Shown piece after piece: positions 1,570 through 58,398 of a DNA stretch of 64,000 nt. The stretch is from Planctomycetota bacterium. Lineage in GTDB: Bacteria > Planctomycetota > UBA1135 > UBA2386. Position 1 is the first letter of the stretch. Every line of letters begins with the position of its first letter. The position numbers and the translations under genes were made by a program. A model generated the notes under the pieces. The model worked only from the letters and a program-made list of their open reading frames with translations. It searched no databases and was not told where the DNA came from. The stretch covers positions 4,645-68,644 of the forward strand of contig VGXW01000001.1 in NCBI GenBank assembly GCA_016873195.1. The letters are read 5' to 3'.

Positions 1570-2550
1570 ATGCTGCGACTGCCCACGTTCACCTACCACC
1601 GGCCCAGGAGCGCGGTCGAAGCCGTGCGCCTGCTGCGCGAGCACGGCCGCGAGGCGATGTACGTCGCCGGCGGCACGGATCTCTATCCCAACATGAAGCG
1701 CCGCCAGCAGACGCCGACCCAGGTGATCTCGCTGCAGGACGTGCCGGACCTGCACGGCGTCGAGGTGCTGGCCGACGGCCGCGTGTCGATCGGCGCGATG
1801 GTCAAGCTGTCGGCGCTCGAGCGGCACCCGCACCTGCTGCGCCACTGCCCGGGCTTCGCCCACGCCGTGCGCGAGATCAGCACGCCGCTGCTGCGCAACA
1901 TGGGCACGATCGGCGGCAACCTCCTGCTCGACACGCGCTGCACCTACTACGACCAGACGCACGAGTGGCGCGAGTCGATCGACTTCTGCATGAAGAAGGA
2001 CGGCGCGATCTGCTGGGTCGCGCCCGCTTCGCCGCGCTGCTGGGCGGTGCAGAGCAGCGACACGGTGCCGGTGGTCTGCGCGATGGAGGCCGAGGTCGAA
2101 CTCGTGGGGAGCGGTGGGGCGCGCACGCTGCGGGCGGGCGAGCTGTATCGCGACGACGGGATCCAGTACCTGACGAAGGAGGCCGAGGAACTGCTGACGA
2201 AGCTCGTGCTGCCGGCGCCCGGCGCGTGGCGGGCGAGCTACGTGAAGCTGCGGCGGCGCGACACCTACGACTTCCCGGTGCTGGGGGTCGGCGCGTGCCT
2301 GTGGTTCGACGGCGGCGGCGTGGTGACCAAGGCGAACGTGCGGCTCGGCGGGGTCGGGTCCTACGCGATCCCGGCGGCCGAGACCGAGAAGCTGCTGGTC
2401 GGGAAGCGGTTGACCGACGAAGTGATCGCGGCGGCGGGTGCGGCGGCGCTGAAGTCGGCGCGCACGATGGACAACACGGACCAGGACGTCTACTGGCGCA
2501 AGAAGGTGGCGCCGGTGTTCGTGGCGCGCGCGATCGCGGCGTGCCGATGA
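1570..2550 (+). CDS. hcrB: FAD-binding medium subunit (CoxM/XdhB fold) with an extra 4-Cys insertion, 4-hydroxybenzoyl-CoA reductase beta type
   Basis: ATG at 1570 lies inside track ORF 1498..2550. The N-terminus MLRLPTFTYHRP...AGGTDLYPNMK is typical of the FAD subunit. It carries an insertion C-x15-C-x7-C-x8-C (nt 1939-2040). It follows hcrA, as in hcrCAB operons. Confidence 0.8.
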   Translation: MLRLPTFTYHRPRSAVEAVRLLREHGREAMYVAGGTDLYPNMKRRQQTPTQVISLQDVPDLHGVEVLADGRVSIGAMVKLSALERHPHLLRHCPGFAHAVREISTPLLRNMGTIGGNLLLDTRCTYYDQTHEWRESIDFCMKKDGAICWVAPASPRCWAVQSSDTVPVVCAMEAEVELVGSGGARTLRAGELYRDDGIQYLTKEAEELLTKLVLPAPGAWRASYVKLRRRDTYDFPVLGVGACLWFDGGGVVTKANVRLGGVGSYAIPAAETEKLLVGKRLTDEVIAAAGAAALKSARTMDNTDQDVYWRKKVAPVFVARAIAACR

Positions 2551-2622
2551 ACTCGCCTCGGCGTGGTCACGGGGCCGCCATGACACTCCCGATCATGGCG
2601 TAACGCTGGCGCTCCTTGCCGA

Positions 2623-3648
2623 TCAGCCCGCCTGGAGCGTGCGTTCGGCATCGCTGATCGTGTCGAGCAGCGCAGCGAAGCTCTGCGGCTCCTCGAGGAA
2701 CATCGGGCGCATGCTCTCGTAGTCGCGGCGCAGCGCCGGCACGCGCGGTGGTGGCGGCATCAGGCGCAGCGACCCGGCCTTCGCCGTGTCGTAGCTGGCC
2801 CAGGCACTCGGGAAGAACATGGCCTTGTGGCGCGCGACCTCGCCGAGCATCCCCAGGTCCGCGGCCGCCGCGCGGCCCACGGGATGATGCCAGAGAGCGG
2901 CGAAGTCCGAGTAGTGACGCGCGCAGCGGTCGGGCATCGGCCGTCCGACGGGTCGGTGGAACTCGGCGTGCAGGATGGTGGCCTTCTCCCAGAACGTCCG
3001 TGGAGCGTCGAGCACGACCACGCGCGCTGCCAGATCACCCTGCGCGAGGCCGAGCGCTTCGTCGACGAGCGTCGCGATCGGCTGGTCGACGAGCGGCCGT
3101 TGGCCCGCGAGCGATCCGAACTCGAGCTTGATCGACTGGGCAATGTAGCTGCCTCCGGCGGCAGCGTCGGTCGTCGGGTAGGTGAACCGCAGCACCGGCG
3201 AGTCGGTGCGCTCGTCGTGTTCGAAGGCGATCCAGCTTCCGCCCGGCGCCGCGCCGAGCCGCTCGCGGAACGACCGCTCGAGCAGTGGCTTCACCTCGGA
3301 CGCCACGAACTCGCGGCAGGCTGCCTGTAGCGCATCGTGTCGCCGGCTCCTGCTGGTCTTCGACGCTGCGGCGACGAGGACCTGTTCCTCGAAGCCGAGC
3401 ACCTCGGGCCGCACGCCGAGGTCGACGTCCTCGGAGAACCGATCGATGACGCGGAAGACCTTCGCCAGGGACGTGCCGCCCTTGAACAACAGGGCCGCGC
3501 CCAGTTCGTGATCCTCGAACAGCCTCGCCAGCGTCCAGCTCACCCATGCGTCCTTCTCGAGGATGAGCGTGGAGATGTCGCTGCGCGCCGCCGCCTCGGC
3601 GAGCAGCAGCTTGCGGTCCTTCGCGTCGAGGCCGGCGAACAGCTTCAT
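2623..3648 (-). CDS. abiEii: AbiEii/AbiGii-family nucleotidyltransferase toxin (type IV TA / abortive infection)
   Basis: Start taken at MKLFAGLD (ATG 3648), which gives an ATGA overlap with the upstream gene. The motif EKDAWVSWTLARL...LLFKGGTSLAKVFRVIDRFSEDVDLGV matches the AbiEii NTase core. Confidence 0.85.
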   Translation of the reverse strand: MKLFAGLDAKDRKLLLAEAAARSDISTLILEKDAWVSWTLARLFEDHELGAALLFKGGTSLAKVFRVIDRFSEDVDLGVRPEVLGFEEQVLVAAASKTSRSRRHDALQAACREFVASEVKPLLERSFRERLGAAPGGSWIAFEHDERTDSPVLRFTYPTTDAAAGGSYIAQSIKLEFGSLAGQRPLVDQPIATLVDEALGLAQGDLAARVVVLDAPRTFWEKATILHAEFHRPVGRPMPDRCARHYSDFAALWHHPVGRAAAADLGMLGEVARHKAMFFPSAWASYDTAKAGSLRLMPPPPRVPALRRDYESMRPMFLEEPQSFAALLDTISDAERTLQAG

Positions 3649-4328
3649 CGGCCCCCGGCTCCGCTCGCGGCCAGCCGACCGACGCTCTTTCCGCGCCTGC
3701 GCGCGCGGCGGCGCGGTTCCTCCGCCGTGAGGAAGCGCAGCAGCGGGTGCATCCACGCCGGAGCCCGCGGCAGATCGCGGCGAAGCCGGCGGCGGTCTGC
3801 GGGTTTCAGCTCGTCGCGCAAGTGGCGGATCCGCGCCTCGGTCGCATGCTGCCGGCCGAGGCTGCGCAGCCCGGCGAACACCATGCTGCTGACCGGTGCC
3901 ACCGCGCCGAGCTTGCGGCGCGGCCGCCGTCGGAAGCGGATGGTCAGCTTGCCCACGCGCACGAGCCGGCTCGGTCCATCGGTCAGGTACTCGATGCGCG
4001 CCGGCACCTGCTCCGAAAGCCGCAGCAGGTTGGCGGCGGTGGCTTCCGCGGGCTGGATCGTTGCGCCGTCGCGGCGCGCCACGGCCTTCGCGATCGTCTC
4101 TGGATCCGGCGACAGGTCGCCGAGCTGCGCATGCCGCCGCGGGACGTCGTAGAGGCCGCGTGCGAGCCGCCGCAGCAGGCCCTTCCGCAGCAGCCGCAGC
4201 AGCGCCATGCCGACCAGGTGCGGCGAGCCGGCGTCGAGGAAGTCGAACGGCGTGAAGACGGAACCCGGCTCCGCCCGCTCGATGCGGCGGCGGATGCGCT
4301 CCGTTCGTGGCATGGGCTTGCCTGGCAT
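3645..4328 (-). CDS. abiEi: AbiEi-family antitoxin / transcriptional regulator
   Basis: Start taken at MPGKPMPRTERIRRRIE (ATG 4328). The winged-helix N-terminus (GSVFTPFDFLD...LLRLLRKGLLRRLARGLYDVP) is typical of AbiEi. It overlaps abiEii by 4 nt. Confidence 0.85.
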   Translation of the reverse strand: MPGKPMPRTERIRRRIERAEPGSVFTPFDFLDAGSPHLVGMALLRLLRKGLLRRLARGLYDVPRRHAQLGDLSPDPETIAKAVARRDGATIQPAEATAANLLRLSEQVPARIEYLTDGPSRLVRVGKLTIRFRRRPRRKLGAVAPVSSMVFAGLRSLGRQHATEARIRHLRDELKPADRRRLRRDLPRAPAWMHPLLRFLTAEEPRRRARRRGKSVGRLAASGAGGR

Positions 4329-4370
4329 TGTGTTAACAATATCGATCAGGACTTTTAACGATCGCCGGTG
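4329..4370 (-). promoter_or_regulatory. AT-rich putative abiE promoter/operator
   Basis: One of the most AT-rich stretches I noticed in the window, immediately 5' of abiEi: GTTAACAATATCGATCAGGACTTTTAACGATCG. It contains palindromic hexamers (GTTAAC, ATCGAT, CGATCG) and a repeated TTAAC(N)ATCG unit. No clean -35/-10 could be assigned. Confidence 0.35.
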
Positions 4371-4418
4371 CAGGATGCCACGGCGCAGTCGCGCGTCGCG
4401 ATGCCGCCGATCCACCGC

Positions 4419-4650
4419 GCGCCGGCGTCACCGCCGCCAGACCGCGAACTGCAGTTCCTCGGCCGCGGGCGACGAGAGGCGAAGCTGGCTGGCAGCGGAG
4501 GTGGGTGGGCTGGGCGACGAGTGGACGGCCACCGAAACCGGGTGGCGCCAGCCCGCGCCCACGACGGACGACACGGACCGGGACGTCCACTGGCTCGAGA
4601 AGGGGGCGCTGGTGTTCGTGGCGCGCGCGCTCGCGGCGTGCCGGTGAACT
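4419..4650. repeat. Junction module copy B: 58-nt segment shared with 5424-5482, followed by a decayed copy of the hcrB 3' end including its stop codon
   Basis: Hand alignment of 4558-4648 against 2461-2551 gives 80/91 identical with no gaps; the translation ...TDRDVHWLEKGALVFVARALAACR* compares with hcrB ...TDQDVYWRKKVAPVFVARAIAACR*. Segment 4419-4476 is about 88% identical to 5424-5482, and 4487-4550 resembles 5535-5600. Confidence 0.65.
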
Positions 4651-4666
4651 GCGGCATCGCTCGCGG

Positions 4667-5251
4667 TCATGCACCTGGCCCGGCTTCACGCCGGGCCCGC
4701 TCGAGCAGTTCGCCGAGCTGCAGTTCGCCGGCCCAATGGCGCAGGTAGTCGAGATCGAGGCGCCCGCGCTGCGTCTTCAGGATGCCGAGCACGTCGCGCC
4801 ACTGGCGTTCCGACGCGCGCCCACCCTTCTCGTACCATTCCAGCTTCGACAGCACGCAGTCCTCGGCGGACGCCACGTGCGCGACGAAGCCCGGCGCGAT
4901 CTCGAGGGGCTGCCGGCGCTGCATCTCCTGCACGCTGAACGCGCGGTCCCGGCGCAGGATCAGGTCGACCTTGAAGCCGGTCTGCCGGTGGATCACGTTG
5001 CACGACTTTGCGTGCGCGATCGCGTATCGCATCCGTTCCGCGTCGGCGAAGAAGTCGGGTCGCAGGCACGCGACCAGCGGCGCGACGACCTCGGGACGGA
5101 GTTCGACGACGATGTCGATGCCCTGCGTGGTCCGGATCTCGCCGTGGACCGTGCTCGCGACCGAGCCGCCGACGAAGTACGAGATGCCGAGCCGCTGCAG
5201 GCAGGTCACGACCGCCGTCACGGCATCGTCCGGCAGGGGATCGTTCGTCAT
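4667..5251 (-). CDS. Minimal nucleotidyltransferase-fold protein (MNT/AbiEii-like), putative TA or defence component
   Basis: 194-aa ORF. It has a GGS-x14-GIDIVVE motif (LGISYFVGGSVASTVHGEIRTTQGIDIVVEL) resembling the G[GS]...DxD NTase signature. Its ATG overlaps the stop of the upstream small ORF (ATGA at 5248-5251). Confidence 0.7.
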   Translation of the reverse strand: MTNDPLPDDAVTAVVTCLQRLGISYFVGGSVASTVHGEIRTTQGIDIVVELRPEVVAPLVACLRPDFFADAERMRYAIAHAKSCNVIHRQTGFKVDLILRRDRAFSVQEMQRRQPLEIAPGFVAHVASAEDCVLSKLEWYEKGGRASERQWRDVLGILKTQRGRLDLDYLRHWAGELQLGELLERARREAGPGA

Positions 5252-5646
5252 TGCGCTTGTGGGTCGAAGCCGTAGCAGCGCACCATCGTGTCCCGGTCGA
5301 GGTGCAGGGCGATGCGGCGCAGCAGCACCTCGCGCTCGTCGGCCTGCGGGTAGCGGCGCCGGATGCCGGCGGTTGCGAACGCATCGGCCATGGCCTGCAG
5401 CCGGCGGAACGCCGCGTACTTCTGCGCCGGCGTCATCTGCCGCCAGACCGCGAACTGCAGTTCTTCAGCCTCGGGCGAGGTGTCGGTGGCGGGGCGATCC
5501 TCGGACACGGAGGCAAGGTAGGCGAGGGGACTCGGGCTGGCAACGGAGGTGGGGGGCTGCCGCGGCGAACGGACGGCTGCCAGTGGTGGCGGCGCTGCAA
5601 CTGGGCCGGCGGCCCGGTGGAGTAGGTCCACATCACGAGGCGCCAT
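5248..5646 (-). CDS. Small partner protein of the NTase (putative antitoxin/adaptor); start uncertain
   Basis: The frame is open far upstream, and candidate ATGs are at 5664, 5646 and 5436. The C-terminal 62 aa (MTPAQKYAAFRRLQAMADAFATAGIRRRYPQADEREVLLRRIALHLDRDTMVRCYGFDPQAQ) look like a compact helical domain. The 5' part overlaps repeat copy C, and GC3 cannot separate the frames there. Confidence 0.5.
   Translation of the reverse strand: MAPRDVDLLHRAAGPVAAPPPLAAVRSPRQPPTSVASPSPLAYLASVSEDRPATDTSPEAEELQFAVWRQMTPAQKYAAFRRLQAMADAFATAGIRRRYPQADEREVLLRRIALHLDRDTMVRCYGFDPQAQ
5424..5640. repeat. Junction module copy C (more diverged; about 45-nt indel relative to copy B)
   Basis: Segment 5424-5482 matches 4419-4476, including an identical 25-nt core at 5439-5463 = 4433-4457. 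Segment 5535-5600 matches 4487-4550. Its plus-frame translation (...GRLPVVAALQLGRR...) weakly parallels hcrB (...GKRLTDEVIAAAGAAALKSAR...). Confidence 0.5.
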
Positions 5647-5816
5647 GTAGACCTTCTCCACCATGCGTCGCGGCGGTTTGACTCCAGCAGCACTCCGGCG
5701 CGCCGGCCTTGGCACCCTCGCGGACGATGTTGCGGGTCGTCGCTCCTTGGGTTCGTGGGCCGTCGCTGGCGGTTGGACCGACGCCGACGCCCGGCGATGA
5801 GTCGCGCCGCGCTCCA

Positions 5817-7007
5817 TCAGCCCGGCGGCACTCGCCACAGCGTCACACGCACCCAACGTTCGTCCCGGTCGTGCTCGAGCTTGGGACCCGTGCCGTTGAA
5901 CTCGGCCATCGCGCGCGCGATGCGCGGGAAGCCGCTGCCGCGCTGCTCCATGAGCCCCTGGTCGGACAGGAAGGTGGCCATCGACTCGTTGCGCGAACGC
6001 GGCGTGCCGCCGGCGAGCACCGACTCGGGCCGTTTGTGGTTCGGCAACGCGCCGGGACTCGTCACCACGACCCGGTCGTCGAACACCTCGATCAGGATGC
6101 GCGAGCCCAGGATCGTGTAGTCGCGGTGGGCGACGGCGTTGACGACGCACTCCCGGAAGGCGCGCATCGGCACCAGCCAGTCGTCGATGCGGCGCATGCC
6201 GACGTAGCGTTCGCTGCGGCCCAGCGCACGCAGCCAGGCTTCGGCACGGTGGACCTGCTCGTCGAGGCGCCCGCGAGCTTCGCCGCTCAGCAACACGGCA
6301 TCGCCGCGGTCGGCGCCGGCGTAGGCCACGAGGTCGACGAAGAAGTTGCGGGTCGGTGCGTGACCCTGGGGGTCCTTGCCGAAACACAGGAGGCCGAACA
6401 GGGTGGCGCGTTGCTGCCCGTCGAGATCGCGACCGAGGACCTCACGGTTCTCGAGGTCGACAGCGAACGGCAGGGCGGGTTCGCTGGCCAGGTCGACACC
6501 CCGGCGCTGCATGAACGCGCGGAAGGCAGTGGGTTCGATGTCGTCAGTACTGGTGCCGGGAACGACTCGTTCCTCGGTGAACACGAGCCCGAACACGTTG
6601 TAGAGCTCCTGCAGTTCGGAGGGATCCGGGTCGACACTGCTCCTGCCGCGACGGACCAGCACCCTGCCGCGATGACGCATCGGTTCGGACCCACGCATGC
6701 GAGCGACCTCGATCCAGTGCACGACTGCGCCCTCGTGCAGCTGTCTGCCGAGGCGTGCCCGGACCGGCAGGTTGAGGGCCGTCTGCAGACTGCTGGCCAG
6801 GCGCTCCTGCACTTCCTCGCCAGGCATCGGCACGCCCTCGATCTGGCCGGTTGCGTCGACGCCGAGCACGAGCAGGCCGCCCTCGGTGTTGGCGAACGCG
6901 CAGACAGCTTCGAGCCAGTCCTTCTCGTCCCAGTGACGGAAGCGGCCGAGTTCGGTCTGCTGGTCCTCGCCAGCCTGGATGCGTGCCACTACCTCGCGCC
7001 ATTCCAT
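5817..7007 (-). CDS. COG2865-type protein: AlbA_2/Schlafen-like divergent AAA N-domain plus HATPase_c_4-like C-domain (putative ATP-dependent DNA-binding regulator)
   Basis: Start taken at MEWREVVARIQAGEDQQTELG (ATG 7007). The motifs EAVCAFANTEGGLLVLGVD and FRECVVNAVAHRDYTILGSRILIEVFDDRVVVTSPG...RSRNESMATFL are typical of this family. Confidence 0.8.
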   Translation of the reverse strand: MEWREVVARIQAGEDQQTELGRFRHWDEKDWLEAVCAFANTEGGLLVLGVDATGQIEGVPMPGEEVQERLASSLQTALNLPVRARLGRQLHEGAVVHWIEVARMRGSEPMRHRGRVLVRRGRSSVDPDPSELQELYNVFGLVFTEERVVPGTSTDDIEPTAFRAFMQRRGVDLASEPALPFAVDLENREVLGRDLDGQQRATLFGLLCFGKDPQGHAPTRNFFVDLVAYAGADRGDAVLLSGEARGRLDEQVHRAEAWLRALGRSERYVGMRRIDDWLVPMRAFRECVVNAVAHRDYTILGSRILIEVFDDRVVVTSPGALPNHKRPESVLAGGTPRSRNESMATFLSDQGLMEQRGSGFPRIARAMAEFNGTGPKLEHDRDERWVRVTLWRVPPG

Positions 7008-7172
7008 GGTGTGCCGTCGTCGTGGGAATCCGCTGGGACGACCGATCGTTCTCGTCGGATGGGTTGGCCGCAACCCCGAGCCGCCCAGGTCGCGAGCGCG
7101 GGCACAGGGCCCTCACGCCGGCGCCGCGATCGACCGGCGAGACGACGCACCCTCGCAACGCCCCGCTGCCGC

Positions 7173-8078
7173 CTACCCCTTCGCCTCGAGCGCCGCCATG
7201 ACCCGCTCGGTGATCGCCTTCACCAGATCGGCCTGGTCGCCGCCGCTGCACGCACACGCACCGTCGCACTTGCTGCACGCACGCGCGCCGCCCGCGCCGC
7301 CGACGCCGCCCGCCGCGCCGCCCTCGACGACTTCCGCGAGTTCGACCTTGCCGCCCTCGCCGACCCCGAACCGCGGGTTCACGCACAGCTCGCCGCCCTC
7401 GACGCGCCGGTTGTCGGTGCCCGAGCCGAACGCCTCCCGGAGGTCCAGCAGTTCGTTGACCTTGCCCTCGGGGATCCGGCGCACCTTGCCGAGCTGCCGC
7501 GCGAGGATCAGCATCCGGCAGTACGAGTCCAGGATCTCCGTGTGCCAGTAGGCGCGTTCGACCGTCGGCCCCCAGCTCACCGTGCCGTGGTTGCTGAGCA
7601 CGACCGTGTTCGCCTTGCCGAGGAACGGCCGCACCGAGTCGGCGAAGCTGTTGCCGCCCGGCGTCGCGTAGTTCGCGCGCGGCACGACGCCGAGGAACAC
7701 CTCGACCTCGGGCAGCACGCAGGTGGGGATGTCCTCGCCGGCCATGCCGAACGCGGTCGCGTGGGGGGGATGGCAGTGCACGACCGCGCGCACCTTCGGA
7801 TCGCCGCGGTAGACCTCGAGGTGCATCGCCGTCTCGCTGGTCGGCTTCTTCTTGCCCGCGACCTGGCGGCCCTTCAGGTCGACGACGCAGAGATCGTCGG
7901 GCTTCATGAAGCCCTTGCAGACCTGGGTCGGCGTGCAGAGCACGAGGTCGTCGTGCAACCGGTAGGAGATGTTGCCGTCGTTGCCGGCGGCGAACTGGCG
8001 CGCGTAGATGCGGCGGCCGATTTCGCAGATCTCCTGGCGGACCGCCCACTCACTGGGGCCGTTCGTCTTCGTCGTCAT
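7173..8078 (-). CDS. Class II aldolase (fuculose/rhamnulose-1-phosphate aldolase type) with C-terminal BMC encapsulation peptide
   Basis: Start taken at MTTKTNGPSEW (ATG 8078), overlapping the DeoR stop by 4 nt. The aldolase_II core is present (AAGNDGNISYRL...TSETAMHLEVYR...VVHCHPPHATAF). A Gly-rich linker and a C-x2-C-x3-C-x-C cluster precede the amphipathic tail DLVKAITERVMAALEAKG. Confidence 0.85.
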   Translation of the reverse strand: MTTKTNGPSEWAVRQEICEIGRRIYARQFAAGNDGNISYRLHDDLVLCTPTQVCKGFMKPDDLCVVDLKGRQVAGKKKPTSETAMHLEVYRGDPKVRAVVHCHPPHATAFGMAGEDIPTCVLPEVEVFLGVVPRANYATPGGNSFADSVRPFLGKANTVVLSNHGTVSWGPTVERAYWHTEILDSYCRMLILARQLGKVRRIPEGKVNELLDLREAFGSGTDNRRVEGGELCVNPRFGVGEGGKVELAEVVEGGAAGGVGGAGGARACSKCDGACACSGGDQADLVKAITERVMAALEAKG

Positions 8079-9012: not shown

Positions 9013-9774
9013 GTGAGCACCCCTGCAAGCCCCCGAGCCGTCGCCGCACCCGCGCTGCGCGCCCTGCCGCGTGAGCGCGTGGCGGCAGTGGTCGCCGAGG
9101 TGCTCGCCGAGAAGCTCGCGGCGCGGGCCCGAGTCCCGGCGGCCCCGGCCCCCACGAAGGCACCCGCCGCAAAGGCCAGCGACCGTGCGCCCGCCCCGCT
9201 CGTGGTCAACATCTCCGTGCGCCACGCGCACATCACCGAGCAACACCTCGAGGTGCTGTTCGGTGCCGGTGCGAAGCTCGAGCCGCAGCGCTGGCTCTAC
9301 CAGGAAGGGCAGTACGCGGCCGCGCAGACCGTCGACGTGATCGGGCCCAAGCGGCGCATCCTGCACGATGTGCGCATCCTCGGCCCGGTGCGCGACCACA
9401 CGCAGATCGAGCTCGCGTTCTCGGACGCGATCATGCTCGGCATCGACGTGCCGGTGCGCATGAGCGGCAACATCGTGGGCACGCCGGGCTGCATCGTGAT
9501 GGGCCCGAAGGGCCACCTGGTGCTGCCCGAGGGCGTGATCCGCGCCCAGCGCCACGTGCACCTGTCGCCCGCCGACGCCGAACGTCACGGCGTCGTGGCC
9601 GGCGACGAGATGGAACTGGTCGTCGAGCACCCGACCTGTCCGTGCGTGCTCGGCGGCATCGTCGCGCGCGTGCACCCCACGTTCCGCCTCGAAGTTCACA
9701 TGGATTCCGACGAGGGCAACGCCTGCGACCTGCCGCGGGCGGCCGGCGTCGCACTCAGGAAGGCGCGCGGGTGA
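9013..9774 (+). CDS. pduL: Phosphate acyltransferase PduL with N-terminal encapsulation peptide
   Basis: GTG 9013 is chosen because the track's ATG 8944 lies in the AT-rich intergenic region. The PduL core is [21 protein letters not shown]...[18 protein letters not shown]. An N-terminal amphipathic helix [19 protein letters not shown] is followed by a Pro/Ala linker. Confidence 0.8.
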
Positions 9775-29497: not shown

Positions 29498-29566
29498 GCG
29501 CGCGGCGCGCGCCGGGTCGCGTGCGCGGTGCTTCCGGGAGGCGGCAGCGCTACTGTGGTCGCCGCG

Positions 29567-30358
29567 ATGGACGCGCCGCGCAAAGAGATCTCTTCCGGCA
29601 GGAACCCCGCGATCCAGCGCTTCCGCGACGCGGCGGCCGGCGCGCTCGGGGGCGCCATGCTCGCCGAGGGCGTGCGGCTCGTGCGCGAGGCGCTCGACGC
29701 CGGCCTGCCCGTGCTCGAGGCCGCTCTGTCGCCGCGCTGCAGCGATGCCGCGCTGCGCGAACGGTTGCAGCAGCAGGCGCGGAGCTTCCTCGAGGTGACC
29801 GACGAGGTGCTCGGCCGCATGAGCGCGCTCGAGACGCCGCAGGGAGTCGCGGTGCTGCTCGCCATCCCGGACGCGCCGGAGGCGAAGCTGCTGCAGGGCG
29901 ACCTCGCCCCGCTGGTCGTCGTCGCCGCGGGCCTGCGCGATCCGGGCAACCTCGGCGCGCTGCTGCGGACCGCCGAGGCGGCGGGGGCCACCGGCGTGCT
30001 GACGATGCAGGGCGGCGCCGACCCGTTCCGCGACAAGGCCGTGCGCGGGTCGATGGGCTCGGTGTTCCGGCTGCCCGTGCGGCACGGCCTCGACGCCGCC
30101 GGCGTCGTCGAGTTCGCGCGGCGCCACCGCCTGCAGGTCGTCGTCGCCGACGGCGGCGGCGAGGTGCCGTTCACGCAGGCCGACCTGAGGAAACCGCTCT
30201 TGCTCGTCGTCGGCGCCGAGGCCGCGGGCGTGCCGCCGGAACTGCTGCGCGCGGCGGCGCAGCGCGTGCGGATCCCGCTGCGGCCGCCCGTCGAGAGCCT
30301 CAACGTCGCGGTCGCCGCCGGCGTGCTGCTCTTCGAGGCGCAGCGGCAACGGGGTTGA
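29567..30358 (+). CDS. TrmH/SpoU-family RNA 2'-O-methyltransferase
   Basis: GLRDPGNLGALLRTAEAAGATGV...MGSVFRLPV...ESLNVAVAAGVLLFE. The start is ATG 29567 or GTG 29528. Confidence 0.8.
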   Translation: MDAPRKEISSGRNPAIQRFRDAAAGALGGAMLAEGVRLVREALDAGLPVLEAALSPRCSDAALRERLQQQARSFLEVTDEVLGRMSALETPQGVAVLLAIPDAPEAKLLQGDLAPLVVVAAGLRDPGNLGALLRTAEAAGATGVLTMQGGADPFRDKAVRGSMGSVFRLPVRHGLDAAGVVEFARRHRLQVVVADGGGEVPFTQADLRKPLLLVVGAEAAGVPPELLRAAAQRVRIPLRPPVESLNVAVAAGVLLFEAQRQRG

Positions 30359-30359
30359 C

Positions 30360-31697
30360 ATGAGCCTGTTCGGCGATCTGCCCGACGCAGCGGGGCCAGC
30401 GGCGCCGAAGGGCCCGCCGCCGCCGCTCGCCGAGCGCATGCGGCCGCGCACGCTCGCGGAGTTCCTCGGCCAGGAACAGGTGCTCGGCGCGGGCCGCGCG
30501 CTGCGGGCTGCGATCGAGCAGGGCAACGCGGGTTCGCTGATCCTGTGGGGCCCGCCGGGCACCGGCAAGACGACGCTGGCGCTGCTGATCGCGCGGCACG
30601 CTGCCCTGCACTTCCAGCCGTTCTCGGCCGTGTTGGCGGGCGTCGCGCAGGTGCGCGAGGCGGTCGCCGAGGCGAAGGCACGCCGCCAGCGCGACGGCCA
30701 GGGCACGCTGGTGTTCGTCGACGAGATCCACCGCTTCAACAAGGCGCAGCAGGATGCGTTCCTGCCGCACGTCGAGAAGGGCGACCTCGTGCTCGTGGGG
30801 GCCACGACCGAGAACCCGTCCTTCTCGGTGAACGGCGCCCTGCTGTCGCGCGTGCGCGTGGTGCCGCTGCAGCCGCTGCCGCCGGCGGCGCTGGAACAGC
30901 TCGTGCGGGATGCGCTGACGGACCGCGAGCGCGGCCTCGGCGTGCGCGGCCTCGCGATCGCGCCCGCGGCGCTCGAACGGCTCGTGCTGCTGGCGGGCGG
31001 CGACGCCCGGCGCGCGCTCGGCTGCATCGAGGCGTGCGCCCTGACCTGCGTCGACGGCGACACGATCACCCGAGCGCAGGTCGTCGAGGCGTTCCAGCAC
31101 CGCGCGCTGCTGCACGACAAGGCCGGCGACCACCACTTCGACCTGCTGTCCGCGCTGCACAAGAGCCTGCGCAACTCCGACGTGCAGGCGGCCGTCTACT
31201 GGCTCGCGCGCGCGCTCGAGGCGGGCACCGACCCCGTGCACGCGGCGCGCCGGCTCGTCGCGATGGCGGCGGAGGACGTCGGCCTCGCCGACCCCATGGC
31301 GCTGCAGGTCGCGGTCGCCGCGCTGCACGCGCTGCAGTTCCTGGGCCTGCCCGAGGGCCGCCTGCCGCTGACCGAGGCCACCGTCTACCTCGCCGCGGCG
31401 CCGAAGAGCAACGCGGTCGTGCGCGCGATCGACGCGGCGGGCGCGGCGGCGCGCGAGGGCGCGGACCACCCGGTGCCGCTGCACCTGCGCAACGCGGTGA
31501 CCGGACTCGCGAAGGAACTCGGCCACGGCCAGGGCTACGTCTACGCGCACGACACCGCGGCCGGGGTCGGGCGCATGGAGTGCCTGCCGCCCGAACTGCG
31601 CGACGCGCGGTTCTTCGTGCCCGGCGAACGCGGCTTCGAGAAGAAGGTCCAGGAGCGCATGGCCGAGAACGACCGCCTGCGGCGCGGCCATGGCTGA
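30360..31697 (+). CDS. rarA: Replication-associated recombination protein A (AAA+ ATPase)
   Basis: LILWGPPGTGKTTLA, VFVDEIHRFNKAQQDAFLPHVE and GATTENPSF, plus a MgsA C-terminal domain. Confidence 0.9.
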   Translation: MSLFGDLPDAAGPAAPKGPPPPLAERMRPRTLAEFLGQEQVLGAGRALRAAIEQGNAGSLILWGPPGTGKTTLALLIARHAALHFQPFSAVLAGVAQVREAVAEAKARRQRDGQGTLVFVDEIHRFNKAQQDAFLPHVEKGDLVLVGATTENPSFSVNGALLSRVRVVPLQPLPPAALEQLVRDALTDRERGLGVRGLAIAPAALERLVLLAGGDARRALGCIEACALTCVDGDTITRAQVVEAFQHRALLHDKAGDHHFDLLSALHKSLRNSDVQAAVYWLARALEAGTDPVHAARRLVAMAAEDVGLADPMALQVAVAALHALQFLGLPEGRLPLTEATVYLAAAPKSNAVVRAIDAAGAAAREGADHPVPLHLRNAVTGLAKELGHGQGYVYAHDTAAGVGRMECLPPELRDARFFVPGERGFEKKVQERMAENDRLRRGHG

Positions 31698-32493
31698 AGG
31701 CCGCGTGCTGTTCGGCGTCGCCGGCTGGTCCTACCCGGACTGGAAGGACGTCGTCTACCCGCGCAACTGCAAGGACAGCTTGCGCGCGGTCGCGCAGCGG
31801 GTCGACCTGATCGAGATCAACAGCACGTTCTACGCCGTGCCGTCGGCGAAGAACTGCGCGTCGTGGGTCGAGCGCACGCAGGACCTCGGCACGCGCTTCA
31901 CGGCCAAGCTGCCGCACGAGTTCACGCACGAGCGGACCTTCGACGCCGCCCTCGTGGCCCAGGTGCGCGGTGGATGCGCGCCGCTGTTCGCCTCGGGCCG
32001 GTGCCTCGGGCTGCTCGCGCAGTTCAACCACGAGTTCCCGTTCACCGCGGCCGCGGTCGAGCACCTCGCGCGGCTCGCGGCTGCGTTCGGTGGCGACACC
32101 TCGCTGTTCGCCGAGGTGCGGCACCGCAGCTGGAACGCCGACGCGGCCCTGGATGCGCTGCGCGGGCTCGGGGTCGGCGCGCTCGACCTCGACTACCCGG
32201 GCATGGTCGGCGGCTTCTCGCGCGACGTCGCGGGCGTGCCGGCCCCCGGCGGCGTCAGCTACTTCCGCCTGCACGGCCGGAACCAGGCGTGGTTCCGCAA
32301 GGGTGCCGGTCGCGACGAGGTCTACGACTGGGAGTACGGCCCGCGCGAGGTCGAGCAGCTGCAGGCGCGCATCGAACGGATCGCGCGGCAGGCGACGCGC
32401 ACGCTCGTCGTCGCCAACAACCACTTCCACGGCAAGGCCATGTCGGTGATCGAGCAGCTGCTCGCGTGGTACCGCGCGGCGGGTGCGGGCTGA
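31690..32493 (+). CDS. DUF72 (YecE/UPF0759) family protein
   Basis: VLFGVAGWSYPDWKDVVYP...INSTFYAVPS...YFRLHGRN. It overlaps the rarA end by 8 nt. Confidence 0.8.
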   Translation: MAEGRVLFGVAGWSYPDWKDVVYPRNCKDSLRAVAQRVDLIEINSTFYAVPSAKNCASWVERTQDLGTRFTAKLPHEFTHERTFDAALVAQVRGGCAPLFASGRCLGLLAQFNHEFPFTAAAVEHLARLAAAFGGDTSLFAEVRHRSWNADAALDALRGLGVGALDLDYPGMVGGFSRDVAGVPAPGGVSYFRLHGRNQAWFRKGAGRDEVYDWEYGPREVEQLQARIERIARQATRTLVVANNHFHGKAMSVIEQLLAWYRAAGAG

Positions 32494-32504
32494 CCGGCGG
32501 CCGT

Positions 32505-32870
32505 TCAGGCGTGCGCGGCGTGTTTCTGCGCGGGCAGCGCGTCGCGGATCAGCAGGAGGCAGCGCTTCTGGCACGCGACCTGGTCCTGCGGTTCGCACAG
32601 GCTGCAGCGCTCGACGTCGAGCCAGCGGTTCGTGTGCGCGTCGCGCACGAAGGTCGCCGTGGCGACCTGGCCCTTCGGGATGCAGAGCAGCCGCTGTTCC
32701 TCGCGCGCCAGGACGGCGCCAGCGGGGATCCGGGCCTTCGCCTCCGTCACGCCCGACAGCGCCATGCCGATCGCCAGACCGACGAGCACGCCGAGCGCTG
32801 CGCCGAGCGGGCCGGCGGCCGCGAAGCCGAGCAGGAGCCCCGCGCACATGCCGACGTAGGTGATGATCAT
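32505..32870 (-). CDS. Small membrane protein with Cys-rich C-terminal domain (hypothetical)
   Basis: ATG 32870 is preceded by GGAGG. The N-terminus is a Gly/Ala-rich TM region (MIITYVGMCAGLLLGFAAAGPLGAALGVLVGLAIGMAL), followed by C...C-x2-C...C-x3-C. Confidence 0.5.
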   Translation of the reverse strand: MIITYVGMCAGLLLGFAAAGPLGAALGVLVGLAIGMALSGVTEAKARIPAGAVLAREEQRLLCIPKGQVATATFVRDAHTNRWLDVERCSLCEPQDQVACQKRCLLLIRDALPAQKHAAHA

Positions 32871-33178
32871 CGCTACCTCCGGGACGGTGCGGGCCGCGCC
32901 CCGCACGAGCTGACGGAACGTACCGAGGCCGGTGCCGGGTGGGAATCCGCCCGAATGCGCAGGGCGCCCGCACCACGCGCGGCGCGGCACGGGCTTGCGC
33001 ATTCTCCGCTGTGGGACGTGCCCCCGACTGCCGGGCGCTGTCTTGCGGCCGCGACATCCTGCCCTCCTGCGAGGACCGGCGCGGCCGGCGCGAAACGGTG
33101 GGCGGGTGGCCTGCGCCGGCGAACAGCTGGCACGGCGATTGCTCGCGACCGACGACGACGACCACCTCAGGAGTGACC

Positions 33179-33640
33179 ATGAACCGCCACCTGTACCTGC
33201 TCCCGGCCATGCTGCCGCTGCTCGCCGGCTGCGGCGGCCACTCGCACGACCCGGTCCCCGCCCCGGTCGCCGAACCGCGCCCGGTGTCGATCCTCGTCGA
33301 GGTCTACGACCCCTACACCAACCTCGTCTGGGAGAACGTGTCGGTTCGCGTCGTCGAGGCCGACCAGGAGTGGTCGAACAGCACCTGGACGAGCCCGTAC
33401 GCCGACTGGTACCTGACCGACGGGAGCGGCCGCGTGTGGTTCGACGAGTACTTGCTCGGTGCGGCCGAGGTGGGCTTCTTCGAGGACGTCGTCGGGCGGG
33501 CGATGCTGAGCCCGCGCCTCGACGAGGACGAAGCTCTCGTGGTGCTCGAGGTCGCCGCGGCAGGTTTCTTCCCGGTGTTCGTCGAGGTGCCGTTGCGGTG
33601 GGACGAGCCCGACGTGTTCGTCGAGGTCCCGTTCTTCTGA
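33179..33640 (+). CDS. Lipoprotein, acidic, unknown function
   Basis: AGGAG RBS upstream of ATG 33179. Lipobox LPLLAGC. The mature part is acidic with no recognisable domain. Confidence 0.55.
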   Translation: MNRHLYLLPAMLPLLAGCGGHSHDPVPAPVAEPRPVSILVEVYDPYTNLVWENVSVRVVEADQEWSNSTWTSPYADWYLTDGSGRVWFDEYLLGAAEVGFFEDVVGRAMLSPRLDEDEALVVLEVAAAGFFPVFVEVPLRWDEPDVFVEVPFF

Positions 33641-33701
33641 TCGGGCCCGGCCGCGCGGCGCAGCCCGGTCAAGTCGCGCCGCGGCGCGCGTCGATGGGAT
33701 C

Positions 33702-34640
33702 GTGACACTCCAGCCGAGGACCCGCTTGGACACGATCCTGCTCGTCAACGACTCCAACACCCTGACCAAGGTCCTGTCGAGCCACTTCTCGCGGGCGGGC
33801 TACCGCGTGATCTGCGTGACCGGGGTCATGGACGCGTTCGCGGCCTTCATCCGCAACGAGGTCGACCTGATCCTGACCGACTACGTGCTGCGCGAGAAGG
33901 ACTGCGCCGAGGTCATCGCGACGTTCCGCAGCAAGAAGGCGCTGGGCAAGCTGCCGATCGTCGTCTTCACCGCGATGGAGGATCCGGACACGGCGCGGCG
34001 GTGCGTCGAGGCGGGAGCCAACCTCGTGCTCGCCAAGTCGAACGGCACGCGCCACCTGCTCGAACGCATCGAGGGACTCGTCACCGAATGGAAGGCCAGC
34101 CGGCCGAGCCCGTCGCTCGACAAGGACCTGGGGCACTGCATCGTCCAGGCGACCGGCGACGTGTTCCGCACGATGGTCAACCGGAAGGTGACGCCCGGCG
34201 AGGTGACGATCGAGAAGGCACAGATCCGCCGCGCCGAGGTGATCGGCAGCATCGGCGTCGCCGGCTTCCTGTCCGGCTCGATCTCGCTGTTCATGCCGCG
34301 CAAGCTCGCGCAGGAGACCGTGGCGGCGATGCTGATGCTCGAGCCGGGAACGGAGGTGTCCGACGCCGAACTCGTCGATGCGATCGGCGAGCTGACCAAC
34401 ATGGTCGGCGGCAACATCAAGACCCTGCTGTTCCAGAAGACCCCGTTGTTCGACATCTCGGTGCCGAGCGTCTACATCGGCGAGGACCTGCAGCGGCGCT
34501 CGGTCAGCGACGACCTCTGTTTCATGGTGCCGTTCCGCGTCGGCGACCTGGAGTTCGCGGTCGAGTTCCTGATGGTCACCAAGAAGGAAGGCGGCACGGG
34601 CGTGCAACAGGTCGTCGTGGACGGCGTTCGCAGCGCGTGA
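33702..34640 (+). CDS. Response-regulator receiver fused to a CheX phosphatase-like domain
   Basis: The REC domain has ILLVNDSN...DLILTDYVL...VVFTAMED...LAKS. The C-terminal part (VIGSIGVAGFLSGSISLF...DAIGELTNMVGGNIKT) is a CheX signature. The start is GTG. Confidence 0.75.
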   Translation: MTLQPRTRLDTILLVNDSNTLTKVLSSHFSRAGYRVICVTGVMDAFAAFIRNEVDLILTDYVLREKDCAEVIATFRSKKALGKLPIVVFTAMEDPDTARRCVEAGANLVLAKSNGTRHLLERIEGLVTEWKASRPSPSLDKDLGHCIVQATGDVFRTMVNRKVTPGEVTIEKAQIRRAEVIGSIGVAGFLSGSISLFMPRKLAQETVAAMLMLEPGTEVSDAELVDAIGELTNMVGGNIKTLLFQKTPLFDISVPSVYIGEDLQRRSVSDDLCFMVPFRVGDLEFAVEFLMVTKKEGGTGVQQVVVDGVRSA

Positions 34641-34671
34641 TCCGGCGGGCGCCACCGGGCACACTTGCGGC

Positions 34672-57636: not shown

Positions 57637-57876
57637 GTGAGCAAGGACTTCCAACGGGAGCTGACGCTCGGGATCCTGGCCGCACTGCGCCGTCGGCCGC
57701 CGCTCCTCCAAGTGATGCGGGGGGCGAGGCAGGTGGGGAAGTCGACGATCGCCGAACAGGTCGGTCGGCAGTGGCGCGGGCCGGTGCGGTATGCGGTGGC
57801 GGATGCGCCGGTGCCCCCCGGGGCCGGAGTGGATCGAGTCCGAATGGCGTCTGGCGGGCTCGGCGCCCGCGGGTGA
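57637..57876 (+). pseudogene. 5' fragment of an AAA_14/DUF4143-type ATPase gene (truncated and frameshifted)
   Basis: The N-terminus ...LLQVMRGARQVGKSTIAEQVG carries the P-loop typical of this family, which is normally about 400 aa. The frame breaks near 57800, where PPGPEWIESEWRLA continues in another frame. Homology ends before 57949. Confidence 0.45.
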
Positions 57877-57948
57877 GGAGCCGTTCCAAGCGGTCGAACG
57901 CGAATGTGGCGAAGCCCAACTCGGCAATGTCGGCGCGCAGCGGTGGGG

Positions 57949-58395
57949 TCAGCCGGTCGACGGCGGCCCGCTGGGCGGCGCGTACATGCATCCCCGCTCC
58001 CGGGCCTTGCTGACCAGCTTGTCGGCTGCCTTCCTCACCGCCGACCCGCCGCCCACGTTGGCGAAGTCGGCGACCGCATGCGCATCATCCTCCGGGAGCT
58101 GGCGCGGGTCCTCCTTCCCGATCGGGTCCGCGTAGGCACGCACACCGACAGCCGAACACTCGCCAACCGACACCGACCAGGTGCCGGCCGACCTGTACTC
58201 CTTGCGCGTGTGCCGCAGGTACGCCTCCTTGGCGCTGACCAGCGAACCTCGCGACACCGATAGCTTGCCCGCGTCCTTGCGGGTCGGATGGAAGGCCTGG
58301 CTCGACACGCGCCCGTCGTTGATCCACTCCGGATGCACCTGGCGGTGCAGCAGTTCTTGCGGCTCCGTGAGCGGGGCCAGCGGTAGGGGAGCCAC
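57949..58395 (-). CDS. Hypothetical 148-aa protein (downstream gene of a two-gene cassette)
   Basis: Non-low-complexity ORF (LLHRQVHPEWINDGRVSSQAFHPTRKDAGKLSVSRGSLVSAKEAY...). Its ATG lies 3 nt after the stop of the upstream gene. I cannot assign a family. Confidence 0.6.
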   Translation of the reverse strand: MAPLPLAPLTEPQELLHRQVHPEWINDGRVSSQAFHPTRKDAGKLSVSRGSLVSAKEAYLRHTRKEYRSAGTWSVSVGECSAVGVRAYADPIGKEDPRQLPEDDAHAVADFANVGGGSAVRKAADKLVSKARERGCMYAPPSGPPSTG

Positions 58396-58398
58396 TGG

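Follow-up and report, generated by a model that had tools for sequence, protein, structure and literature searches.

A displaced hcrB-like gene end between two toxin–antitoxin cassettes of a planctomycete, and its probable origin in the duplication of a cassette unit

How does a second, decaying copy of a gene's 3' end come to lie between two different toxin–antitoxin (TA) cassettes when the gene has its own end still intact? This question is raised by a 4.6-kb islet of TA and defence genes in the window analysed here, a 64-kb stretch of planctomycete DNA, where the islet is bounded by the end of an hcrB-like operon on one side and by a microcompartment sugar-utilisation cluster on the other. 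The arrangement, with both cassettes on the minus strand, was recognised in an initial annotation, and on this point we agree with it. The features discussed below are as follows.

1570–2550, plus strand: hcrB-like gene, encoding the FAD-binding subunit of a xanthine-dehydrogenase-family molybdoenzyme
2442–2451, plus strand: the microhomology GGCGGCGCTG, inside hcrB and immediately 5' of the duplicated segment
2453–2569, plus strand: copy A, the functional last 98 nt of hcrB and about 19 nt 3' of it; left copy of the duplicated target
2623–3648, minus strand: AbiEii nucleotidyltransferase toxin (Pfam PF08843, 1e-33; PADLOC AbiEii, 7e-88)
3645–4313, minus strand: AbiEi antitoxin/regulator, DUF6088 type (Pfam DUF6088, 1e-36, and AbiEi_4; PADLOC AbiEi, 2e-59)
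4419–4475, minus strand: J1, pseudogene fragment of a second copy of the antitoxin gene, codons about 11–28
4476–4549, minus strand: up1 and the joint, a leader copy (4476–4529) and 20 nt in register with 5578–5597 that include a decayed copy of the microhomology
4550–4669, plus strand: copy B, displaced pseudogene of the hcrB 3' end (120 nt: 98 nt, stop codon and about 19 nt)
4667–5251, minus strand: MenT1-like nucleotidyltransferase (NTase), putative toxin of the second cassette
5248–5508, minus strand: small ORF of 86 aa, putative antitoxin, overlapping the NTase start by 4 nt; holds J2 (5424–5478)
5509–5597, minus strand: leader of the intact cassette, with up2 at 5524–5577; distal end of the duplicated unit, ending in GGCGGCGCTG at 5588–5597
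5817–7007, minus strand: COG2865-type protein with Schlafen AlbA_2 and HATPase_c_4 domains (Pfam) and partial PADLOC matches; a neighbour only

The product of the hcrB-like gene carries the Pfam domains FAD_binding_5 and CO_deh_flav_C and scores 243 bits against TIGR03195, below that model's cut-off of 404. The gene is the last member of a conserved operon, and its orthologues (75–86% identity) are found in 37 Planctomycetota MAG loci. The two copies of its end align without gaps (2453–2553 with 4550–4650) at 87% identity, in frame and including the stop codon, with 85 of 98 bases identical in the coding part. Gapped local alignment of 2453–2569 with 4550–4669 scores 77.5, a value that none of 500 dinucleotide shuffles reached (14.3 ± 2.4). 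An nhmmer profile built from 34 orthologous hcrB tails and run on the whole 64 kb identified two copies, A (E = 1e-71) and B (E = 6e-20), the next best match having E = 0.036. The left edge of copy B is sharp, as the profile match begins exactly at 4550. A longer homology, reaching back to 2398 and 4505, had been proposed, but 2372–2452 against 4466–4549 scores 12.5, where the shuffle mean is 12.6. Eight changes in copy B are derived, and seven of these hit first or second codon positions that are invariant in 33 orthologues; judged by its sequence, copy B is a decaying pseudogene. At third codon positions, A and B differ at 3 of 34 sites, compared with at least 7 of 34 for any orthologue; this places the origin of copy B in the same lineage or one very close to it.

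Copies A and B bracket a 1.98-kb segment (2570–4549) bearing a recognisable AbiE system. The AbiEi regulator is encoded directly upstream of AbiEii (a DUF1814-type NTase) with a 4-nt overlap, and both proteins match Pfam (PF08843, PF19570, PF13338) and PADLOC profiles, as expected of an AbiE type IV TA or abortive infection module. The left boundary of this insert falls within about 0–20 nt of where the NTase cassette has its own boundary next to hcrB. Insertion at a fixed point would account for the coincidence too, which counts against the history proposed below.

In the second cassette, the AlphaFold model of the NTase (pLDDT 92) has its best PDB matches in the MenT1 toxin and MenAT1 (8an4 and 8an5; TM 0.62–0.64, E 3e-7), and the small ORF overlapping it upstream is a further likeness to MenAT1 (Rv0078A/B). 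However, identity to MenT1 is just 18–19%, and the window copy has Gly for the first Asp of DxD. Its motif reads GGS...G44-I-D46, whereas at least 90% of 40 aligned homologues have Asp at this site. Pfam and NCBIfam gave no match to the NTase, which has more than 1,180 homologues. The predicted fold and the small partner gene are those of a MenT-type TA system and the G[GS]...DxD motif is not intact; we treat the NTase as a putative toxin and the small ORF as a putative antitoxin. The small-ORF protein is identical to P0001 and has homologues P0002–P0006; in most related loci its gene is upstream of and paired with the NTase gene. Contigs without hcrB (L089–L093) have the leader too, conserved upstream of the same cassette.

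Remnants of a second copy of this cassette lie between the AbiE genes and copy B. J1 (4419–4472) is 91% identical to J2 (5424–5478), and up1 (4476–4529) is about 80% identical to up2 (5524–5577), a 45-nt indel separating J from up. The J score was reached by none of 500 dinucleotide shuffles, nor was that of up alone (30, against 13.9 ± 2.2; 0 of 500). Read on the minus strand, J1 gives SPAAEELQFAVWRR and then a stop, a motif conserved in the protein homologues P0002–P0005. It lacks a start codon, has suffered a 1-nt deletion that leads to the stop, and breaks off at 4419, the edge of the AbiE insert; on these features of the DNA itself, J1 is a pseudogene of the 5' end of the small antitoxin gene. 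The 25-nt core GCCGCCAGACCGCGAACTGCAGTTC, which the initial annotation took for a junction or recombination module, turns out to be the reverse complement of codons ELQFAVWR in the conserved antitoxin-like N-terminus (P0001–P0005). The larger "junction module" is J1 plus the up1 leader, and we reject it as an att-like site. Its recurrence at other cassette boundaries, which the annotation itself had set as a test, was not borne out.

The proposed repeats are thus partly upheld: those between A and B and within J and up exceed shuffled sequence (0 of 500 in each case), and the hcrB end is present in two copies rather than three. Neither A nor B aligns above chance with 5578–5816, and what had been called "copy C" is the cassette's own leader (up2, 5524–5577). 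No repeats flanking the COG2865 gene were detected by repeat comparison, the hcrB-tail profile or shuffle-tested alignment. Because there are only two hcrB-end copies and 5524–5577 is leader, the AbiE segment alone is bracketed by hcrB ends, and not three successive cargoes as first thought.

The joint between the remnants and copy B is informative. The register between up1 and up2, with a spacing of 1,048 nt, runs up to a head-to-tail joint at 4549/4550, so that in J1, up1 and B we see the joint of a single unit, circular or in tandem. The 10-mer immediately 5' of the duplicated segment in hcrB has a second, identical copy at 5588–5597, in register and immediately 5' of the other breakpoint. 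Only 2.5% of random pairs of 60-nt windows share at least 10 nt anywhere, which speaks for the microhomology. Against it, the word is a common GC-rich one (nine copies in the window) that was noticed post hoc, and its copy at the joint is degraded. A 10-nt microhomology at the joint favours ordinary recombination, illegitimate or homologous, over the site-specific recombinase acting in trans that had been suggested.

We infer the following order of events and enzymology, to which we assign a probability of about 0.6. In the ancestral state, hcrB would have been followed by the convergent MenT1-like NTase toxin gene, the small antitoxin gene and a leader of about 90 nt. A unit of 1,048 nt (present 4550–5597), comprising the last 98 nt of hcrB, the spacer of about 19 nt, the NTase gene, the small ORF and the leader, would then have been duplicated head to tail, either as a tandem duplication or through an excised circle re-integrated by host recombination, with the new joint between the leader and position –98 of the hcrB end made at the microhomology. 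Since the duplication takes in the stop codon of hcrB, the gene would have stayed intact (copy A) and the second end (copy B) would have become a functionless fossil. Subsequently, a 1.85-kb AbiEii/AbiEi cassette may have replaced the redundant NTase gene and antitoxin codons of about 29–86 in the hcrB-proximal unit. The antitoxin gene's 5' end (J1) and the leader (up1) would have remained there; a later loss of 45 nt from J1/up1 would have removed the start codon, and a frameshift would have been added. Host illegitimate and homologous recombination would suffice for all of this, with no dedicated recombinase required, and the addictive nature of TA modules would explain why the cassettes persisted. 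Microhomology-mediated tandem duplication resembles this history in its head-to-tail joint, the 1,048-nt distance, the 10-nt identity at the breakpoints and the decay of one copy, but here one cassette copy has been replaced by an unrelated TA cassette.

Similar arrangements occur outside the window. In four other unrelated genomes the small-ORF/NTase cassette is bracketed by imperfect duplications, 56–300 nt long, of the end of a neighbouring gene: 56 nt in L135/L136, 86 nt or more in L098/L099, 67 nt in L102, and about 300 nt in L100/L101, where three copies are present and an AbiE cassette is the second cargo, alternating with the first. An AbiE homologue in L130 likewise shows a gene-end duplication (89 nt). 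The background rate of such flanking duplication is 0.3% of random 850-nt segments. For the cassette family, then, the pattern is more than a single occurrence. For the hcrB end it is not: each of the 37 orthologous loci carries one hcrB tail only, followed by DNA unrelated to that of the window, and none (0 of 37) has a duplicated tail or these cassettes, which shows that the hcrB end is not a recurrent integration hotspot.

Some of these loci bear on where the duplicated unit came from. At certain residues copy B and J1 keep the family consensus where the functional copies (A and J2) are derived, so they could have originated in a sister strain and not by duplication in situ. In such a strain the AbiE cassette would have replaced most of the NTase cassette beside hcrB, and a 2.1-kb circle (hcrB end, AbiE, J1 and up1), excised at the microhomology, would have entered the hcrB end by a Campbell-type single homologous crossover beside a resident intact cassette. 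The topology and joint would be the same as those of in situ duplication. This course of events would also explain the L101 arrays, with their different cargoes between target copies, and locus L098, where two copies of the hsdR 5' end differ mostly synonymously and resemble two orthologous alleles, and it agrees with the cycle of invasion, amplification and release proposed for restriction-modification (RM) modules (PMC2853133). However, neither the strain nor the circle has been observed, the donor must have been very close given the third-position differences between A and B, and at least as many steps are needed as for duplication in situ. We consider import from a sister strain unlikely, if the most serious of the alternatives.

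Serial site-specific integration, the reading nearest to the initial annotation, is less probable still. Small elements without an integrase but with replacement hcrB 3' ends would have integrated one after another at an attB site in the hcrB end, served by a recombinase encoded elsewhere in the genome, as when CIME-type elements are mobilised in cis or trans. Tandem accretion at one att site, including integrase-less CIME-type derivatives (ICESt3/CIME), places cargoes in series with copies of the target 3' end between them; the proximal copy keeps the gene intact, and individual units lack a recombinase. The window has the same outward form, its intact gene-proximal and displaced distal copies recalling attL and attR of islands at gene 3' ends, and the AbiE segment and NTase cassette both adjoin the hcrB downstream region at about +19 nt. 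Elsewhere, too, target-end copies separate different TA cassettes, and the L100/L101 target has a tRNA-like end (...GGTTCGAGCCC...ACCA), a classic integrase target. Against this, a Pfam scan of ORFs from the 64-kb window (60.3–63.2 kb covered in part) turned up no domain of an integrase or transposase, in agreement with the initial annotation. The third, original target copy predicted distal to the NTase cassette is absent, leaving two copies where n + 1 are expected of gene-3'-end islands, and no att-like core is conserved between junctions, the supposed conserved arm being a fragment of the antitoxin gene. The target is unused in the 37 related genomes, and the cassette family sits on at least five unrelated targets, which include 5' as well as 3' gene ends and whose duplicated stretches measure between 56 and about 300 nt. 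Moreover, the block duplicated in L097/L101 covers more than 200 nt of the RNA and about 100 nt past its 3' end, unlike a fixed crossover core, and the joint in the window shows microhomology.

Chance matches or an assembly artefact can be dismissed: although 55–65% identity alignments abound in a genome of about 70% G+C, and the left half proposed for copy B is indeed at chance level, as is "copy C", the shuffles and the profile match to copy B speak against chance, and the structure is the same in seven independently assembled contigs from at least six samples (99.97–100% identical over 2300–7200). These seven are the only close contigs and all carry the structure of the window; no relative with a single unit or an empty site was found, which counts against the order of events proposed above.

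Integron cassettes and CALINs also bear comparison, as promoter-poor small cassettes, often TA, in one orientation, with repeats between them and no integrase nearby. In the window, however, the repeats are hcrB and antitoxin-gene fragments rather than attC-type imperfect palindromes, and no IntI gene was found among the ORFs scanned. Judged from the identity of the repeats, attC-type sites are missing at the cassette 3' ends, and copy B directly adjoins the NTase stop codon, leaving no room for one.

A closer parallel to duplication and replacement by host recombination is insertion with long target duplication (ILTD) and amplification via flanking repeats, described for RM addiction modules (PMC2853133; Furuta, Abe & Kobayashi 2010); ILTD of RM gene complexes is credited there to Nobusato et al. 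2000. By analogy, the gene-end duplications around the cassette family match ILTD, which has so far been described for RM modules. In both cases a small addiction-type module without integrase or transposase sits between direct repeats, imperfect and tens to hundreds of bp long, which copy the local target and often overlap a gene end; repeat length varies between targets, the unit is multiplied in tandem through the repeats, and the mechanism is presumed to be host-mediated. In the window, the target-copy repeats exceed 30 bp (A/B about 117 nt, with 87% identity over the coding portion), and the insert is shorter than 20 kb and contains a complete addiction module, TA rather than RM, with no mobility genes among the ORFs scanned. 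The cargo differs in consisting of TA modules with nucleotidyltransferase toxins (MenT1-like and AbiE), so that the DNA breakage by the cargo invoked by Furuta et al. is not available here, and what lies between the repeats is one copy of a duplicated unit whose content has been exchanged, not a simple insert.

In L135, L098 and L102 one cassette lies between two target copies, which simple tandem duplication does not explain, and the general process may therefore differ from that proposed for the window. The varied targets and lengths fit homology- or repair-driven events, not one site-specific enzyme. Gene-end duplications around this cassette family in several genomes are more than isolated accidents would predict.

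Genes resembling those for hydroxybenzoyl-CoA reductase open the window, in the genome of a high-GC member of the Planctomycetota. The hcrA- and hcrB-like genes (1-2550) have orthologues in 37 Planctomycetota MAG loci, at 75-89% amino-acid identity. We use the name hcrB-like because the gene scores 243 bits against the equivalog model for 4-hydroxybenzoyl-CoA reductase beta, under its cut-off of 404. Toxin-antitoxin (TA) and other minus-strand genes follow, and beyond 7007 lie a class II aldolase, a DeoR regulator and then a microcompartment fucose/rhamnose cluster. A second candidate defence locus, made of adjoining minus-strand genes, was identified at 57637-59946.

Genes and profile matches discussed in the text (plus-strand coordinates)
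1570-2550, hcrB-like gene with FAD_binding_5 and CO_deh_flav_C domains (Pfam)
2623-3648, minus strand, AbiEii toxin (Pfam and PADLOC profile matches)
3645-4313, minus strand, AbiEi antitoxin (Pfam and PADLOC profile matches)
4667-5251, minus strand, 194-aa protein (NTase), overlapped by the 86-aa ORF
5248-5508, minus strand, 86-aa small ORF, containing the repeat J2
5817-7007, minus strand, Schlafen-AlbA_2/HATPase_c_4 protein (Pfam)
57637-57876, 79-aa fragment beside the PDC-M32 genes, weak AAA_14 P-loop match
57949-58395, minus strand, PDC-M32B match (PADLOC candidate system, 1e-39)
58399-59946, minus strand, PDC-M32A match (PADLOC candidate system, 5e-65)

The 194-aa protein has no match in Pfam or NCBIfam. 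Its AlphaFold model, built from 40 homologues (pLDDT 92), superposes best on the M. tuberculosis MenT1 toxin (8an4/8an5; TM 0.62-0.64; E 3e-7), and on this basis the NTase and the small ORF are predicted to form a MenAT1-like toxin-antitoxin pair. At residue 44, where the catalytic DxD motif begins with an Asp in at least 90% of the 40 aligned homologues (consensus DVDIV), the NTase has Gly (GGS...QGIDIV); the intact cassette may thus encode an attenuated or inactive toxin. The hcrB and AbiEii genes converge on an inverted repeat at 2575-2600, CGCCATGA(N9)TCATGGCG, a possible bidirectional terminator.

The 3' end of the hcrB-like gene (A) recurs as a displaced copy (B), as the initial annotation had claimed. 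A (2453-2553) and B (4550-4650) are 87% identical without gaps, and local alignment of 2453-2569 with 4550-4669 scores 77.5, against 14.3 +/- 2.4 for 500 dinucleotide shuffles, none of which reaches it. An nhmmer profile of 34 orthologous tails detects the real gene (E 1e-71) and B (E 6e-20, starting exactly at 4550); with the same profile we found no further hcrB tail in the 64 kb, the next best match having an E of 0.036. The third tail proposed earlier, "copy C", thus falls away: the profile finds two copies only, A and B align at chance level with 5578-5816, and 5524-5577 is the cassette leader. The proposed leftward extension of the A/B match is equally illusory, with 2372-2452 against 4466-4549 scoring 12.5 (shuffle mean 12.6); similarity of copy B over 4466-4505 is chance-level, blastn having run on through GC-rich sequence. 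Seven contigs, assembled independently from six or more samples, agree at 99.97-100% identity over 2300-7200, and on this ground we regard the repeat structure as real.

A and B differ at 13 sites over 98 coding bases, and we polarised these differences with 33 orthologues. B carries eight derived changes, of which seven alter first or second codon positions at which the orthologues show no variation; A carries three (P>S, L>I and one synonymous), and the other two are not polarisable. Since the derived changes hit invariant positions, B appears to be decaying free of protein constraint. A bias from AT to GC among the changes in B was considered and rejected (4 AT>GC, 2 GC>AT, 2 G<>C). Among the 34 third codon positions, A and B disagree at 3, but comparing either copy with any orthologue gives 7 or more disagreements, which points to an origin of B in the same or a very close lineage. 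We thus read B as a probable fossil from that lineage rather than from a distant donor. Metagenome pipelines call an 80-aa gene here (4428-4670, minus strand), which is antisense to the fossil hcrB end and then runs in frame into a fossil antitoxin N-terminus. It has no family match in Pfam and is most likely spurious, a warning for annotation that an ORF merely antisense to a fossil gene end can be called.

Two further repeat pairs accompany the hcrB ends. J1 (4419-4472) and J2 (5424-5478), described in the initial annotation as a junction module, are 91% identical, and up1 (4476-4529) and up2 (5524-5577) are ~80% identical; a 45-nt indel separates the J and up blocks. The A/B, J and up comparisons each exceed all 500 shuffles, the control that the annotation had suggested. 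The recurrence of J therefore holds, and its interpretation as an att- or attC-like site was rejected, the module being antitoxin coding sequence plus leader. Its 25-nt core is the reverse complement of the codons E-L-Q-F-A-V-W-R at the N-terminus of the 86-aa ORF, and the protein motif DTSPxAEELQFAVWR(Q/R)MTP is kept in homologues from other metagenomes (P0002-P0005). J1 (4419-4475) translates as SPAAEELQFAVWRR and then meets a stop due to a 1-nt deletion, is missing a 45-nt stretch with the start codon, and breaks off at 4419, the start of the AbiEi upstream region. Because of the frameshift stop, the missing start codon and the truncation, J1 is best read as a pseudogene fragment of a second antitoxin gene. 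In L089-L093, comparison loci from elsewhere that lack a neighbouring hcrB, this small-ORF/NTase pair follows an FGE-sulfatase gene, and the DNA resembles that of the window from ~5577 as far as the end of the NTase gene at its stop codon. As this similarity reaches ~5577 without hcrB, up is part of the cassette itself, its leader or promoter region, with up1 as the fossil copy.

Read along the plus strand, hcrB with its end A is followed by the AbiE cassette, J1 and up1; then come B, the NTase gene, the small ORF with J2 inside it, up2 and a spacer. The up1/up2 register, at a spacing of 1048, extends to 4549 and B begins at 4550, which makes J1-up1-B a head-to-tail joint of one unit, represented today by 4550-5597 (1,048 nt: hcrB end, NTase gene, small ORF and leader). 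The 10-mer GGCGGCGCTG lies at 2442-2451, directly 5' of A, and again at 5588-5597, directly 5' of the register-equivalent breakpoint; the joint carries it in degraded form (GGGTGGCGCC). This is a common word, with 9 copies in the window; a shared stretch of at least 10 nt, at any position, nevertheless occurs in only 2.5% of random pairs of 60-nt segments, and the present one sits in register at each of the two breakpoints. Judged from the sequence, the joint carries what looks like the signature of microhomology-mediated tandem duplication, to which circle excision and re-integration would be equivalent. The proximal unit keeps just its two ends, A and J1/up1, and a 1,849-nt AbiE segment (2570-4418) stands in place of ~754 nt, namely the NTase gene and antitoxin codons ~29-86.

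We favour a two-step history, with a probability of about 0.6. A unit of hcrB end and MenT-like cassette would have undergone microhomology-mediated head-to-tail duplication (or re-integration of a circle), and AbiE would then have replaced the redundant proximal cassette, an order of events that we infer rather than observe. A variant in which the circle came from a sister strain would leave an equivalent joint, and seems to us unlikely. By itself, the window locus is a fairly ordinary recombination scar; it illustrates how TA/defence cassettes can be copied and swapped at the end of a host gene without disrupting it.

Accretion of cassettes at the hcrB end by a trans-acting site-specific recombinase, as envisaged in the initial annotation, is unlikely. 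The observation behind it is largely real and its outline is right: the gene end is regenerated, a fossil copy lies displaced between two different kinds of TA cassette, and no recombinase was found; the three copies, the junction module and the hotspot did not hold up. A Pfam search of plausible window ORFs (60.3-63.2 kb partly covered) found no integrase, transposase or serine recombinase, and the n+1 target copies expected from serial integration are absent. None of the 37 orthologous hcrB loci has a second hcrB tail downstream or any of the three window cargoes, and the gene after hcrB differs in almost every one of the 37 genomes. From these loci, the hcrB end appears to be the end of a conserved operon and not a recurrent integration site. 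The lack of a recombinase among the ORFs searched, of a recurrent target and of n+1 copies weighs against a dedicated site-specific system, although a recombinase encoded elsewhere in the genome is conceivable. A recombinase, a recurrent target and n+1 copies also define integrative islands, as attC sites and IntI define integrons, and none of these features was found here. No empty-site or variant alleles occur among the seven contigs carrying the exact proteins, all of which are identical.

The orthologous neighbourhoods provided further observations. In five related MAGs (loci L014, L020, L033, L037, L043), no more than 2-5 kb lie between hcrB and the downstream orthologues of the window genes at 29528-36021 (SpoU methylase, MgsA ATPase, DUF72, CheX response regulator, Xaa-Pro aminopeptidase). 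The corresponding interval of the window (2553-29527) measures ~27 kb and holds the TA islet, the BMC fucose/rhamnose cluster, a beta-propeller protein and a CHASE4 kinase. We rejected 2.5-29.5 kb as one large island, the intervening DNA being a microcompartment fucose/rhamnose cluster and signalling genes, not mobile; rearrangement is the more likely source of the difference. In a Gemmatimonadaceae MAG (L046), a minus-strand methyltransferase gene is found within the first 1.2 kb after the hcrB orthologue. The 70-nt copies that flank it (1113-1183 and 2395-2465) are a palindromic REP/MITE-like element, unrelated to gene-end duplication.

The small-ORF/NTase cassette is bracketed by long imperfect direct repeats in four independent loci from other metagenomes or genomes, and the repeats are copies of a neighbouring gene end. 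In a Planctomycetota MAG whose hcrB orthologue is 290 kb away (L135/L136; L135 is from the same genome as L015), an 859-nt cassette lies between two 56-nt copies that are 91% identical (L135 4667-5637). These hold the overlapping 3' ends of convergent genes for a 119-aa secreted protein and an SDF-family transporter, and each copy leaves one of the two intact; the second starts at the NTase stop codon, like B. At L098/L099 the cassette is found between an hsdR 5' fragment and the complete hsdR (L098 326-475 and 1548-1700). The fragment has its own start codon, is preceded by a PIN toxin gene, and differs from hsdR mostly at synonymous sites, as two orthologous alleles would. At L102, with a TumE toxin gene upstream, a 67-nt copy of a gene start precedes the cassette and the real gene follows it (228-294 and 1287-1354).

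The fourth locus carries three decaying ~300-nt copies (L101 181-4620; also L100 and L097). In L100/L101 these delimit two cargoes, the small-ORF/NTase and AbiEi/AbiEii cassettes, the same two kinds as in the window. The repeat unit corresponds to the 3' portion of an RNA-like gene, with ...GGTTCGAGCCC...ACCA and a terminator at its end; it closes with a tRNA-like T-arm/acceptor, ...GGTTCGAGCCCTCTCGCGCCCACCA, and then a terminator hairpin. Despite these features, a tRNA or tmRNA target was rejected, with no significant ARAGORN or Rfam match. The third copy in L101 is split by a ~230-nt insert, and in L097/L101 the duplicated block reaches ~100 nt beyond the RNA 3' end.

An AbiEii homologue shows a similar arrangement in L130, where a 5.2-kb segment has an 89-nt fragment of a sigma-70 gene 5' end on one side and the intact gene on the other.

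Repeats at L130
4268-4355, sigma-70/PDZ gene 5' end, fossil, upstream
9565-9653, sigma-70/PDZ gene 5' end, intact gene, downstream

A different AbiE homologue (L123 2682-6334) lies within a cluster of TA-like pairs (PhdYeFM/DUF433; AbiEi/AbiEii; a 175-aa ORF with a DUF6036 protein), around which no flanking direct repeats were detected.

As a control, 850-nt segments were taken at random from comparison loci totalling 1 Mb: only 0.3% were similarly bracketed, most of them by internal protein repeats or REP-like elements. Against this background, finding 4 bracketed loci among the ~13 that are informative has a P of ~1e-7. Unrelated genes serve as targets, at their 5' as well as their 3' ends, and the duplications are 56 to ~300 nt long. 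No shared junction motif was seen among the few junctions compared by eye. This wider recurrence around the cassette supports the spirit of the initial annotation.

Among phenomena already described, the nearest is "insertion with long target duplication", reported across many phyla for restriction-modification (RM) gene complexes, small addiction modules without mobility genes, whose direct target repeats exceed 30 bp and often overlap gene ends (PMC2853133). The proposed RM life cycle runs from insertion through amplification via the repeats to release; the mechanism is unexplained, and DNA breakage by the RM system was suggested (PMC2853133). The window locus resembles this class in repeat length, insert size and lack of mobility genes. 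Within the literature searched, no description of the phenomenon for classical TA cassettes was found, and a TA review that uses both terms cites RM work only and does not apply the phrase to a TA locus. It is quite unlikely, in our estimate, that small NTase-type TA cassettes (MenT1-like, AbiE) are themselves mobile units that enter gene ends with 50-300-nt target duplication, leaving flanking genes intact and forming arrays separated by fossil gene ends, with no integrase or transposase. Such spread might use a RecA-dependent circle/Campbell cycle or repair that fills long staggered breaks, conceivably with a contribution from the cassette's own proteins.

How chromosomal TA/defence cassettes move without mobile-element genes is poorly understood. 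If true, the mobile-unit reading would extend the phenomenon from RM systems to TA modules with toxins that do not cleave DNA, and would remove the proposed role of cargo-made DNA breaks. The worth of the locus is that recurrent long gene-end duplications around the same cassette family in unrelated bacteria would extend the addiction-module mode of mobility to TA systems. If the pattern holds in a systematic survey, it would represent a recombinase-independent route to TA/defence islets, and a mechanism unexplained since 2000 would become testable with non-nuclease cargo.
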